Of a stretch of DNA of 64,000 nucleotides, positions 16,038-51,984 are shown piece after piece; within the stretch, counting starts at the first letter, position 1, and every line of letters starts with the position of its first letter. Under the pieces are notes generated by a model. The model did not search any database. It worked only from the letters and a program-made list of their open reading frames with translations, and was not told where the DNA came from. Source of the DNA: Escherichia coli (GTDB taxonomy: Bacteria > Pseudomonadota > Gammaproteobacteria > Enterobacterales > Enterobacteriaceae); the NCBI RefSeq assembly GCF_013122565.1, contig NZ_CP053258.1; one strand, written 5' to 3'. Position numbers and translations under genes: made by a program.

Positions 16038-17276
16038 TCATATTGTTCCCCCCGGCATCGCATTCACCAGACCTGAAACTGCCTTCTGCGCTGCCTCTGC
16101 GCTTTGTGCACCGGGTACCAGAATCACCTTACGGCACTCCTCTTCACGTTTTTCGAAAATCTCATATCCCCGGGCGGCCTCTTCAAACGGCATATAGTGG
16201 GTAACAATTTCTTCTGGTTTCAGTAATCCTTTCTCAATTAACGGTAATAATTCTCCCAGCCATGCGTGAACGTGGGTCTGTCCCATTTTAAACGTCAACC
16301 CTTTATCAAAGGCGTCGCCAAACAGGAAACCGTGAATAAATCCAGCGTAGACGCCCGGCACGCTAACAATGCCGCCACGCCTGACCGCCGCAATACACTG
16401 GCGCAACGCTTTACCGCTGCTGCCCTCCAGTTTCAGGTTAGTCAGCACCGTTTCCGTGGTGCTGCCTTTCGCTTCAAAACCGACGGCGTCTATTACTGCA
16501 TCCACGCCCCGGTGACCTGCCGTTTGTTCAATAATTGACTGTGCCGGATCGCTATCTTCATCAAAATTAATCGGGATCGCGCCGTAGCGGTCAGCGGCGA
16601 AACGCAAGCGGTAGGGATGATGATCAACAACAAAAATCTGTTCCGCACCGAGCAACCGTGCACAGGCGATTGTCAACAATCCCACAGGACCGGCACCATA
16701 GACTGCAACGCTTGAACCTTGTTGGATCTGCGCATTTTTTGCTGCCTGCCATGCCGTTGGCAGAATATCAGAAAGGAAAAGGGCTTTATCATCTGAAAGC
16801 AAAGGCGGTACTTTAAACGGCCCCACATTCCCTTTAGGGACGCGGACATATTCCGCCTGCCCGCCAGGAACGCCACCATACAGGTGACTATAACCAAACA
16901 ATGCCGCGGGAGCTGGTATCTGTTTTTTATTGAGCGCAGCGCCTTTACCCGCATTGGTATTTTCGCAGGCGGCATATTGCTGCAATCGACAGAAAAAACA
17001 GTCGCCACAAGCAATGACGAACGGAATTACCACCCGGTCGCCTTTTTGCAAATTTTTTACGTCCTTTCCGGTTTCAACGACTTCCCCCATAAATTCATGA
17101 CCAAAAATATCGCCATGTTTAACCTGGGGTATTTTGCCTCGATAAAGGTGGAGGTCAGAGCCACAGATCGCCGTTGCCGTAATACGCAGAATTATATCAT
17201 CTGCCTGTTCAATGCCCGGATCGGGAACATTTTCTACCTGAACGTGATGTGGGCCGTGATAAGTCAATGCTTTCAT
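16038..17276 (-). CDS. ybdR: zinc-type alcohol dehydrogenase-like oxidoreductase (412 aa)
   Basis: Track ORF 412 aa with MDR zinc-ADH motifs ([21 protein letters not shown]). Confidence 0.9.
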
Positions 17277-49028: not shown

Positions 49029-49067
49029 TGCTAACGTCAGATTGTTGACAAAGTGCGCGTCGTTCAT

Positions 49068-49164
49068 GCCGGATGCGGCGTGAACGCCTTATCCGGCCTA
49101 CAAAATCTTGCTAATTCAATATATTGCAGGACTACGTAGGCCTGATAAGCGTAGCGCATCAGGC
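49068..49164. repeat. BIME: two REP units in inverted orientation between fepA and entD
   Basis: gccggatgcggcgtgaacgccttatccggcctaca (49068-49102) and gtaggcctgataagcgtagcgcatcaggc (49136-49164). Confidence 0.6.
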
Positions 49165-49201: not shown

Positions 49202-49822
49202 ATGAAAACTACGCATACCTCCCTCCCCTTTGCCGGACATACGCTGCATTTTGTTGAGTTTGATCCGGCGAGTTTTCACGAGCAGGATTTACTCTGGCTG
49301 CCGCACTACGCGCAACTGCAACACGCTGGACGGAAGCGCAAAGCCGAACATTTAGCCGGACGGATCGCTGCAGTTTATGCGCTGCGGGAATATGGCTATA
49401 AATATGTGCCCGCAATCGGCGAGCTACGCCAACCTGTGTGGCCTGCGGGGGTATACGGCAGCATTAGTCACTGTGGGACTACGGCATTAGCCGTGGTATC
49501 TCGTCAACCGATTGGCATTGATATTGAAGAAATTTTTTCTGCGCAAACCGCAAGAGAATTGACAGACAACATTATTACGCCAGCGGAACACAAGCGACTC
49601 GCAGACTGCGGTTTAGCCTTTTCTCTGGCGCTGACACTGGCATTTTCCGCCAAAGAAAGCGCATTTAAGGCATCGAAGAGACAAACTGAAGCAGGTTTTA
49701 TGGACTATCAGATAATTAACTGGAATAAACAGCAGGTCATCATTCATCGTGAGAATAAGATGTTTGCTGTGCACTGGCAGATAAAAGAAAAAATAGTCAT
49801 AACTCTGTGCCAACACGATTAA
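49202..49822 (+). CDS. entD: 4'-phosphopantetheinyl transferase EntD (206 aa)
   Basis: Internal ATG at 49202 (MKTTHTSLPFAGHTLHF) of track ORF 49124..49822; stop TAA at 49820-49822. Confidence 0.9.
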   Translation: MKTTHTSLPFAGHTLHFVEFDPASFHEQDLLWLPHYAQLQHAGRKRKAEHLAGRIAAVYALREYGYKYVPAIGELRQPVWPAGVYGSISHCGTTALAVVSRQPIGIDIEEIFSAQTARELTDNIITPAEHKRLADCGLAFSLALTLAFSAKESAFKASKRQTEAGFMDYQIINWNKQQVIIHRENKMFAVHWQIKEKIVITLCQHD

Positions 49823-49871: not shown

Positions 49872-49943
49872 AAAGTGTAAAGCAGGTGCCCTACCATCCT
49901 GACCTGACAACCGGATATGCGGGGATTGCTCCCCGCACAACGG

Positions 49944-50096
49944 CTACTTCTTCGGTTCGTAAGCGAGAACAGCCTTAAACTCAATATTACGTTCCTTCAC
50001 CGTAAACTCACACAGCGAGTCTCCGACCAGAAGCGTAAATCCCAGTACCGTCAAACACAGCACTATGACTGCCACAAGGGCATATTTCGTCAGCAT
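49944..50096 (-). CDS. hokE: Hok-family small membrane toxin HokE (50 aa)
   Basis: Internal Met of track ORF 49944..50180; [50 protein letters not shown] has the Hok single-TM plus conserved Cys/EVAAF-like tail; the track ORF N-terminus runs into IS150 and is an artefact. Confidence 0.8.
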
Positions 50097-50192
50097 GTTT
50101 ATATTGCCTCCATGCGAAGAAGGGACTACCATCCAAATTGCTAGGTTTGGGTAGGTAGCCCCAGGGTGTACTGACCCCAAAAAGTTGGACAG

Positions 50193-51044
50193 TTAAACAC
50201 GAGGCATATAGGTCTGATTCCGATATTCAATTGGAGTCAGACCTTTTAATTTCAGGCTAATTCTTCTGCTGTTGTAGTATTCAATATATTCCGTAACAGC
50301 ATCCTTCAGTTCGCTTATATTACTGAACTCATCAAGATAAAAACACTCCGACTTTAAGGTTCCAAAGAAACACTCCACCACAGCATTATCCAGACAATTG
50401 CCTTTTCTGGACATGCTTTGTTTAATACCATGTTCTTTAAGGATATTTTGATATCTTCTCATACGATACTGCCATCCCTGGTCAGAGTGCAGAACAGGAT
50501 GCTCGTGAGGATTAAGCTTTTTGAATGCCTGATCGAGCATATTCTCAACCATGTTCATCACTGGTCTTTCCGAAAGGCTGTAAGAAATAACTTCATTGTT
50601 GAAGAGATCTATTACTGGAGACAAATACAGCTTGCGCCCATTGACTGCAAATTCAGTAACATCGGTAACCCACTTCTCGTTTGGCCGCGTAGCCTTGAAA
50701 TCTCTTTGGAGAACATTGGGGGCGGTTTGCCCTACCTCTCCTCTGTAAGAGCGGTATCGCTTGACCTTAATCGCTGCCTTAAGTGAGAGGGTTCCCATCA
50801 GGCGCTGAACAGCTTTATGGTTAATCTGTTTCCCTTCTCGATGAAGAGACAGCGTTACCCTACGGTATCCGTATCGGCCTCTATTCTCATGATAAATCTC
50901 ACCAATACGCTTTTTAACGTCCGCATACTTGTCAGGCTTGCTGAGAGCCTTTAGATGGTAATAAAACGTACTGCGCGGTATCTCCGCAGCCCTGAGAAGC
51001 TCATCAAGAGGATAAAACTGCCTTAGCTCGTTGAGTACTTTCAC
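50193..51044 (-). CDS. insK: IS150 OrfB (InsK, DDE catalytic domain, 283 aa; expressed as OrfAB fusion by -1 frameshift)
   Basis: Track ORF 283 aa with integrase-core DDE region; overlaps orfA in the -1 frame. Confidence 0.93.
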
Positions 51045-51562
51045 TTTTTCGTGGGATGAGCTAAGGCTTTCAGCTTTTTTAGATACACAAGCCGCGTTTC
51101 AAGAAATCGAACTTGCCTTTCAAGATCCTCAATGCGTCGGTCTTTTGACAGCTCCAATGCTGATGCCGCTTTTTCTGGATCAACTGATATTGCAATGTTT
51201 CTTTTGGTGCCAATCTTGAGCGCGCGTAAACCAGCTTCTCCGCGCTCTTCATAAACCTTCAGCCACCTGGCTACAGAACCACTACCAGCAAGCATAAAGT
51301 GAGCAGCAGCCTGATTAAGGGACATGTGCTGCTCGATCACAGCTTTCACGACCTTAATACGCAACTCTGGATCAGCACTAACACCTTTAGGTTTGGGAAT
51401 TAAACCTTTTTCTCCATGTTTTTCATAGAGGGCAACCCATGTCCTGACCTGGGTTCGGGGGACACCAAAACGTGCCGAGATGATCCTGTAACCATCATCA
51501 GTAGTGAAGTAGTGATTCACGACTTCAAGGCGCTTTTCAAAAGGGTATTTTGGCTTTGACAT
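51041..51562 (-). CDS. insJ: IS150 OrfA (InsJ, HTH DNA-binding, 173 aa)
   Basis: Track ORF 173 aa (MSKPKYPFEKRLEVVNHYFTTDDGYRIISARFGVPRTQVRTW...), recognised as IS150 OrfA. Confidence 0.93.
   Translation of the reverse strand: MSKPKYPFEKRLEVVNHYFTTDDGYRIISARFGVPRTQVRTWVALYEKHGEKGLIPKPKGVSADPELRIKVVKAVIEQHMSLNQAAAHFMLAGSGSVARWLKVYEERGEAGLRALKIGTKRNIAISVDPEKAASALELSKDRRIEDLERQVRFLETRLVYLKKLKALAHPTKK
51074..51080 (-). other. IS150 programmed -1 ribosomal frameshift slippery heptamer A_AAA_AAG near the end of orfA
   Basis: orfA codons ...CTA AAA AAG CTG... (L-K-K-L) located 11-12 codons before the orfA stop, within the orfA/orfB overlap window. Confidence 0.7.
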
Positions 51563-51984
51563 ATCAGGGGCTATTCCATTTCATCGTCCAACAAAATGGG
51601 TGCAGTACAGGGTTGATAGAAATATCTCCTGGGGCTTCATCTTTCCAGACCTCAGAGTAAACCTGAAACCGGAAAGCTTCAGGCACCCGCCGTTATCTTA
51701 CCCTTCCTCAACAAAATAGCTGTTTATTTATACAGTGAGTCCTGTTTCGGACTTCTCACTCCCCATTTGATCAACTGAAGCTGAACCCGTTTTTTTCTGC
51801 ATGCCGCAATCGTCAAAATTCTTCGCCACCAGCCAGCCGTGCCATAACTTGTCACATTGCAAAAGTAGCCAAATTGCTTCAGGCACCATCAGTTCACCAT
51901 CACCAAAAAAAAGAAACATTCCAGAACTTCCGCATCTCGCCCAGCCGCTCCGACTTCTATACTGAATAGAAAACGCCAACATAA

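Follow-up and report, generated by a model that had tools for sequence, protein, structure and literature searches.

An IS150 insertion upstream of hokE in an Escherichia coli genome is very probably the known sokE::IS150 allele

Introduction

The hok/sok module of plasmid R1 is the paradigm for hok/sok regulation. Chromosomal homologues of hok/sok have been described as hot spots for mobile-element insertion in Escherichia coli (bioRxiv 10.1101/527788), and disruption by an insertion sequence close to, but outside, the hok reading frame is a pattern that PMC11551753 credits to Pedersen and Gerdes (1999). The closest described case is sokE::IS150, which was reported in XL1-Blue, a K-12 derivative, and is absent from MG1655 and BW25113 (PMC11551753). 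According to the same study, over 400 natural isolates and some Shigella flexneri carry the insertion "exactly as" XL1-Blue does, and IS150 likewise disrupts sokA in MG1655. When sokE::IS150 was exchanged for sokE+ in K-12 derivatives, RecA was no longer required in strains with engineered antisense transcription (PMC11551753).

Here we analysed a 64,000-nt stretch of E. coli DNA (contig NZ_CP053258.1), referred to throughout as the window, in which a copy of IS150 lies upstream of hokE. Very probably, this is the sokE::IS150 allele already described for hokE/sokE, a chromosomal type I toxin-antitoxin locus; the insertion is an ordinary one and is carried by about a tenth of complete E. coli genomes. 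An initial annotation of the locus was right about the mechanism of insertion and about the situation in K-12, wrong about the rarity of the insertion, and too confident in calling it an inactivation.

Structure of the inserted element

The element is a full-length copy of 1443 bp on the minus strand (50167-51609) with 99.2% identity to the K-12 copy. Compared with the annotated IS150 of K-12 MG1655, 1432 of 1443 positions are the same, the differences being 11 substitutions without any insertion or deletion, and the best identity to copies in E. coli genomes was 99.8%. The listing of open reading frames showed orfA and orfB to be both open and overlapping, and both transposase genes share the orientation of hokE. 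On the minus strand, orfA (51041-51562) encodes 173 aa and differs from K-12 InsJ by M159V, while orfB (50193-51044) encodes 283 aa with an integrase-type catalytic domain and differs from K-12 InsK by S48G. OrfB scored 349.8 bits against the NCBIfam model NF033516 (transpos_IS3, IS3-family transposase), for which the cut-off is 160, and the Pfam rve domain is present in annotated IS150 OrfB genes elsewhere, some of them with the exact OrfB sequence of the window.

A programmed -1 frameshift signal is predicted from motif and fold at 51014-51080 on the minus strand. It consists of A AAA AAG (51080-51074), located at IS150 position 530, and a stem-loop 3' of the motif with a folding energy of -20.4 kcal/mol (z = -3.8); RefSeq labels homologous IS150 copies with the term "programmed frameshift". 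The two terminal inverted repeats, delimited by alignment with each other, are imperfect and each starts with TGTACTG. The right repeat (IRR; 50167-50190, minus strand) faces hokE and its exact match is unique in the window, and the left repeat (IRL; 51586-51609, minus strand) lies on the hokE promoter side. The open reading frames and the K-12 alignment confirm all features for which the element had been called a complete 1443-bp IS150, namely orfA, orfB, the A_AAA_AAG site and both inverted repeats, and the element is apparently an intact IS150.

The hokE leader and sokE at the insertion site

The hokE gene itself (49944-50096, minus strand) has an intact open reading frame for a 50-aa toxin identical to HokE WP_000956465.1 of strain TUM13773, a common HokE allele; its matches to the NCBIfam HokA and Hok models (E = 4e-13 and 3e-10, respectively) fall below the curated cut-offs of both paralogue models. 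IS150 is separated from the hokE ATG by 70 nt (50097-50166), and with the entD stop at 49822 the interval between hokE and entD is 121 bp, both spacings being those originally reported. The 3' UTR of hokE is uninterrupted, and the hairpin GCGGGG ATTGCT CCCCGC just past the hokE stop (49919-49936), a target at which K-12 and REL606 carry IS186, is unoccupied in the window.

Upstream of hokE, the mRNA leader is divided by the element. The 3' part, which was placed by a partial match to Rfam RF01794 and by alignment with K-12, is kept with hokE (50097-50166, minus strand) and includes GGAGG 10 nt before the ATG. The 5' part lies beyond IS150 (51613-51688, minus strand), starts with GGGTGCC at 51688, and corresponds to RF01794 positions 1 to ~83, with the +1 position assigned by homology. 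RF01794 is named "sok" yet matches the hokE sense strand, where it spans the leader completely, beginning at GGGUGCC and reaching the start codon, and intact hokE leaders score ~84 bits against it end to end. In the window, no contiguous hok mRNA leader was found, since IS150 splits the RF01794 region: one match, of 61.6 bits, extends over 51533-51688, where genuine leader accounts for only the first ~83 of 157 model positions, the remainder aligning to IS150, and a second, weak match of 26 bits extends over 50088-50177. The K-12 leader begins 147 nt before the hokE ATG, and the CCC that is duplicated in the window corresponds to leader nt 77-79.

An ATG in the leader is located at 51640-51638, and its K-12 counterpart, as read from the sequence, is in frame into hokE. 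The leader rebuilt from the window has a TAG in the frame of this leader ORF, and the in-frame extension is not conserved across all haplotypes. The cutting of an in-frame mokE had been considered as the main argument for lost hokE translation and was dropped, because the frame has a stop in the window haplotype; an argument from mok-type coupling would be weak for hokE.

The annotation of K-12 puts sokE (b4835) on the opposite strand, 44-103 nt ahead of the hokE ATG; at -70 to -68, the insertion thus falls within this gene. Mapping from K-12 b4835 places the 5' 27 nt of sokE, through the 5' arm of the terminator hairpin, at 50140-50166 (plus strand), and mapping from the K-12 sokE annotation places the orphaned 3' 32 nt, comprising the loop, 3' arm and U-tail of the terminator, at 51613-51644 (plus strand). 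The sokE sense strand reads GCTAGGTTTGGGTAGGTAGCCCCAGGG up to the element and continues with TTGATAGAAATATCTCCTGGGGCTTCATCTTT beyond it, such that IS150 separates the 5' arm (GCCCCAGG) of the SokE terminator hairpin from its loop. Comparison with K-12 b4835 indicates that sokE is interrupted after its first 27 nt, and the window lacks an intact Sok RNA gene with its own terminator. A probable sokE promoter, TTGCCT and TACCAT with a 17-nt spacer (50104-50132, plus strand), was recognised by eye and by homology and ends 7 nt before the mapped SokE 5' end. A consensus promoter and terminator scan returned no more hits than in shuffled sequence and did not find the hokE and sokE promoters. The initial annotation had located IS150 where the hok promoter and the mok/sok elements are expected; the regulatory region of hokE is indeed affected, but what is split there is the leader and sokE, and the promoter is not hit.

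Distribution of the insertion among complete genomes

The 200-nt junction between hokE and IRR was found in 550 of 5426 complete E. coli genomes, and the whole 2.2-kb arrangement, at a coverage of at least 80%, in 504 of the same 5426. Carriers have genome sizes of ~4.6 to 5.3 Mb and come from many hosts, and IS186/IS421 also follows hokE in many of them. The best identity of the window region to complete E. coli genomes was 98.6-99.1%, with the 2.2-kb arrangement at or below 98.6%. An exact scan for the junction in the GTDB species representatives found none. Many contigs encode exactly the YbdK, OrfA or OrfB protein of the window, but no contig among them was the same at the DNA level. For comparison, the two flanks of the element were joined into a 400-nt empty site, at least 80% of which is covered by a place in 4941 of 5426 complete genomes. 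Empty (4941) and filled (550) places together exceed 5426 because some strains (e.g., 6EVA) have tandem hokE copies, one of which is hit.

Recurrence of IS150 at hok paralogues

The hokE site is an IS150 hot spot shared with the paralogous hokA, hokC and some hokB loci. A hokA::IS150 junction at the position homologous to that in the window, in the same orientation, was found in 875 genomes. The query for hokC was a purely predicted junction, built at the homologous position, and it was recovered in one piece at up to 99.5% identity in 447 genomes, including JM109 and another K-12 laboratory strain; the hokC site of MG1655 is empty. IS150 adjoins hokB in 623 genomes, where it was located at the 5' end of the hokB mRNA in one locus (L015) and at the homologous Sok-terminator site in two others (L031 and L026). 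A search of the open-access literature gave no match for hokB together with IS150. In three samples picked only by exact transposase protein sequence, 23 of 30 IS150 places adjoin a hok gene, although these places are non-independent events.

Insertions that arose in laboratory lineages have been recorded at the same loci. De novo IS150 insertions at hokC/nhaA position 16,972 were reported in three evolved clones (PMC5419217), and in REL606 this position is exactly the homologous hokC site. A de novo insertion near hokE was given at 582,237 in the same report (PMC5419217), a coordinate that disagrees with the REL606 RefSeq record at this locus. In mutation-accumulation lines, under minimal selection, trg/mokB was called an IS150 hot spot (PMC5289635). 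IS150 prefers this spot: in hokA, hokC and some hokB loci it occupies the matching position in the same direction, and laboratory lineages acquire new insertions there. Since the hot spot is shared, recurrence alone is no sign of selection on the toxin.

The sequence next to the element was also compared among sites, which were oriented by the transposase and aligned past the duplication on the IRR side, with the motif defined from the hok sites first. After the duplication on this side, hokE has TGGGGC, hokA has TGAGGC, and hokC and hokB have CGAGGC. Six unrelated IS150 sites comprised three with the exact motif (TGAGGC twice and TGGGGT once), one with TGGCGC, one in which the motif is shifted by one base, and one without it. 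In this small sample, the motif mostly coincides with the 3' arm of a predicted hairpin, the duplication lying at the border between loop and arm.

One origin or several at the hokE site

More than one allele of IS150 occupies the position upstream of hokE. The canonical one, which matches the K-12 copy exactly, occurs there in two flank haplotypes (loci L001 and L011), a second allele occurs in L006 and L007, and the allele of the window is a third, with 11 differences from that of L001/L011 and 5 from that of L006/L007. The closest match to the window allele, with 3 differences, is a copy in hokA of another strain, which occupies the homologous leader position in the same orientation and has the duplication AAG. 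The simplest reading of these alleles and haplotypes is that the hokE site was hit several times independently, with recombination and conversion between IS copies as possible alternatives. The window copy may itself be a separate hit rather than an inherited common allele, because a variant IS150 allele is found in its own flank haplotype.

The initial annotation had favoured a lineage-specific event. On such a reading, a private insertion would have arisen once in recent ancestry and would reflect selection to silence hokE. The divergence of the window allele from those of L001/L011 and L006/L007 would fit such an event, as would the observation that no complete E. coli genome exceeds 98.6% over the 2.2-kb region. 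We nevertheless consider a private insertion unlikely: exactly this junction, in this orientation, is present in 550 genomes that represent several flank haplotypes and IS alleles, and also in E. coli B (REL606) and S. flexneri; it has been published as sokE::IS150; and homologous sites have been hit repeatedly under minimal selection (PMC5289635). Given this recurrence under minimal selection, target preference explains the site without selection, and the description of the insertion as lineage-specific does not hold.

In terms of numbers, the junction counts for hokA, hokB, hokC and hokE come to ~2500, against ~5300 chromosomal IS150 places in 5426 genomes. A broader proposal, for which we see the balance as even, is that IS150 insertion is targeted and not random, occurring in a fixed orientation 3 bp upstream of a YGRGGC motif that makes up the 3' arm of a hairpin; Sok terminators would then be the main chromosomal sites, the window copy would be another independent hit, and the choice of target by IS150 would account for the widespread decay of chromosomal hok/sok loci to a greater extent than selection against the toxins.

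Predicted consequences for hokE and SokE

Judging by homology to hok/sok of plasmid R1, the paradigm of the family, and by the annotation of K-12, we infer that hokE is silenced and that SokE is truncated or lost as a regulator. The hokE gene, which retains its Shine-Dalgarno sequence and 70 nt of the leader, would be severed from its own promoter, from the 5' leader (the first 76-79 nt) that normally pairs with the 3' end of the mRNA, and from the upstream leader ATG, while the orphaned hokE promoter would read into the left end of IS150. The normal 60-nt terminated SokE would no longer be produced, and transcription from the sokE promoter would instead enter IS150 at its right end; on the sokE strand, the first terminator-like hairpin beyond this point is at 50210-50244. 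The net result would be a module that no longer functions as a regulated toxin-antitoxin pair. The initial annotation described this as inactivation of the toxin locus. The antitoxin gene is broken, but the ORF, Shine-Dalgarno sequence and 3' UTR of the toxin gene remain whole, and inactivation of the toxin is presumed.

The insertion could alternatively deregulate hokE, in that the loss of SokE together with read-through from IS150 or from the displaced hokE promoter would lead to low or conditional toxin production and to a phenotype. IS150 and hokE run in the same direction, and the terminator scan revealed no terminator-like site between orfB and hokE on the minus strand; read-through expression of hokE is possible because, in addition, the strong Shine-Dalgarno sequence is kept (GGAGG, 10 nt before the ATG). 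In K-12 derivatives, moreover, sokE::IS150 compared with sokE+ alters the RecA dependence of viability, although the mechanism of this phenotype was not established by the authors (PMC11551753). The allele is, however, stably present in ~10% of genomes, so that any toxicity must be mild, and the 27-nt 5' segment of SokE, which is still linked to its promoter and complementary to the leader sequence kept with hokE, may go on pairing there. We therefore regard deregulation as distinctly improbable, and silencing of hokE as the preferred reading.

Target-site duplication and mode of insertion

The element is flanked by two copies of the trinucleotide GGG, one on the hokE side (50164-50166; GGG on the plus strand, CCC on the hokE sense strand) and one on the ybdK side (51610-51612), where just one copy is found at empty loci. 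The uninterrupted hokE leaders of K-12 and strain 2012C-4221 have the sequence ...TCTATCAA CCC TGGGGC..., in which this CCC occurs once, and the 400-nt empty site rebuilt from the window aligned as one ungapped piece in genomes among the matches listed. The comparison shows that the 3-bp duplication is real and that the element entered the hokE leader by simple transposition, because empty hokE loci have a single CCC and the window has two copies; the GGG duplication and the mode of insertion proposed in the initial annotation are thereby borne out. An origin by IS150-IS150 homologous recombination or by gene conversion from another hok locus is scarcely credible and was rejected for the window copy, since, although recombination products are known (L033 combines a hokE promoter-side flank with a hokC-type hok-side flank and has no duplication) and the duplication is also absent at K-12 hokA::IS150 and at the REL606 hokE IS150, both flanks in the window are hokE-type, colinear with entD and ybdK, and rebuild an unbroken hokE leader with exactly one extra GGG.

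Comparison with known systems

For the window itself the insertion carries little weight, as the polymorphism is common and already published and concerns a cryptic toxin-antitoxin locus. Genome annotation usually marks hokE as intact here when the leader and the antitoxin gene are actually split, and the presence of the allele matters when strains are compared, in view of the reported phenotype change, concerning RecA dependence, in K-12 derivatives (PMC11551753). The repeated landing of IS150 at one nucleotide position of the hok paralogues bears on the question of target choice versus selection in hok/sok breakage.

The closest relatives are the sokE::IS150 carriers (loci L001, L006, L007, L011, L024, L037 and L043), which have the same element, locus, nucleotide position, CCC/GGG duplication and orientation as the window. 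The window differs from canonical sokE::IS150 by the 11 differences within IS150 and by a hokE-side flank haplotype unlike that of the K-12-type carriers; it also has just one copy of hokE, with neither IS186 downstream nor an insertion sequence nested in the element. E. coli B REL606 shares the IRR junction upstream of hokE with the window, but its IS150 is interrupted by IS1 and has lost nt 1062-1294; in addition, the left flank in REL606 is not the hokE promoter and 5' leader seen in the window, and IS186/IS421 is also present after hokE. S. flexneri records such as CP000266 have the OrfB protein allele of the window upstream of hokE with the same spacing and junction, but they differ from the window in other insertion sequences nested in orfA, in having two hokE copies, and in an entD/fepA flank that is only 95.5% identical.

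Among the paralogues, hokA/mokA/sokA::IS150 of K-12 MG1655 resembles the window in that IS150 lies in the leader of a hok paralogue and interrupts the mok and sok genes, but this copy is 32 bp from the hokA ATG, in the opposite orientation, without a duplication, and with ~43 bp of the leader missing. Unlike the MG1655 copy, the common natural hokA::IS150 insertion occupies the position homologous to that in the window. In hokE of K-12 MG1655, the same toxin locus is disrupted by an insertion sequence that is likewise near, but outside, the reading frame: IS186B (IS4 family) lies 18 bp past the hokE stop, between hokE and entD, in a GGGG-N6-CCCC hairpin, and parts hokE from its 3' UTR. The placement of an IS186 copy in K-12 by the initial annotation is thus correct, as is the statement that the IS150 insertion is independent of it, the two being different events on opposite sides of hokE. 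Finally, IS1397 and ISKpn1, both of the IS3 family, insert into the loops of palindromic REP units. Their behaviour is similar to the landing of IS150 at a loop/arm border, with REP palindromes as the targets of IS1397 and ISKpn1 and Sok terminators and other hairpins with a YGRGGC arm as those of IS150.

IS150 at the Sok terminator hairpin of hok paralogues

The interrupted hokE leader in the window (50100-50266) was compared with the hok loci of three paralogues in stretches from other genomes, namely hokA (L008:2401-2600), hokC (L014:1802-1960, from JM109) and hokB (L031 and L026). At the homologous position in the Sok terminator hairpin, IS150 was present in hokA in 875, in hokC in 447 and in hokE in 550 of 5426 complete E. 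coli genomes, and in all three cases alike the right terminal inverted repeat (IRR) faced the hok gene. IS150 adjoined hokB in 623 genomes, with some copies at the Sok-terminator position and others at the 5' end of the mRNA. Together, the hokA, hokB, hokC and hokE places made up nearly half of the ~5300 chromosomal IS150 places in the 5426 genomes.

At most IS150 sites examined, the sequence immediately past the target-site duplication on the IRR side was YGRGGC, and in the usual case a hairpin was predicted in which this motif supplies the 3' arm. Flanks were inspected at the hok loci and in stretches L027, L028, L034, L039, L041 and L042; the motif, taken from the hok sites alone, was matched at three of six non-hok IS150 sites. 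IS150 may thus choose its targets by this rule.

Other IS150 places and end variants

One IS150 copy (L042:2400-3950) lay between chaA and kdsA, where the ldr loci (type I toxin-antitoxin) are situated and where de novo IS150 insertions have been reported too. In some IS150 copies the left end was preceded on its outer side by an additional TG (TGTGTACTG...), as seen at the left inverted repeat junctions of L029, L030 and L026; at hokA in L029 and L030 the duplication consequently appears to be 5 bp long.

Features of the hokE locus

An unoccupied GGGG-N6-CCCC hairpin was located at 49919-49936 of the window, 7 nt past the hokE stop codon, and the IS186 insertion point of both K-12 and REL606 coincided exactly with it. 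The toxin gene of the hokE locus is thus flanked on either side by a distinct IS hot spot.

In many strains hokE and its leader were tandemly duplicated or triplicated with a spacing of ~503 bp, examples being L004:471-1776 (strain 2012C-4221), L007:1774-2429 (6EVA), L016, L024, L037 and L045-L048. Where IS150 was found in such multi-copy loci, it occupied the copy closest to ybdK.

Comparison of window 51533-51688 with the K-12 annotation indicated that Rfam RF01794, a 'sok antitoxin' by name, matches the hokE strand and covers the whole hok leader; K-12 sokE is annotated on the other strand. In the fepA-entD spacer (window 49057-49143), the ES036/CssrF sRNA family was matched with a score exceeding its gathering score, and a partial REP-like match to Rfam naRNA4 at 38 bits fell below that family's gathering score of 59.5.

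IS150 copies without target duplication at hok loci

At hokE of E. coli B REL606 (L010:1996-3972), IS150 was itself interrupted by IS1, lacked its nucleotides 1062-1294 and had no target duplication; on its left it adjoined neither the promoter nor the 5' leader of hokE but a segment whose counterpart in the window is located closer to ybdK. The IS150 of GCA_949767955.1 (L033:2954-4430), also without a duplication, was bordered on one side by hokE promoter-side flank and on the other by a hokC-type leader and hok gene, and seems to have arisen when IS150 copies of different hok loci underwent recombination or conversion. In K-12 MG1655, the sole IS150 at hokA (L005:1090-2640) had the opposite orientation to the hokA::IS150 common in natural strains, had no target duplication and was accompanied by the loss of ~43 bp of leader; it therefore either derives from that allele by rearrangement or arose separately.
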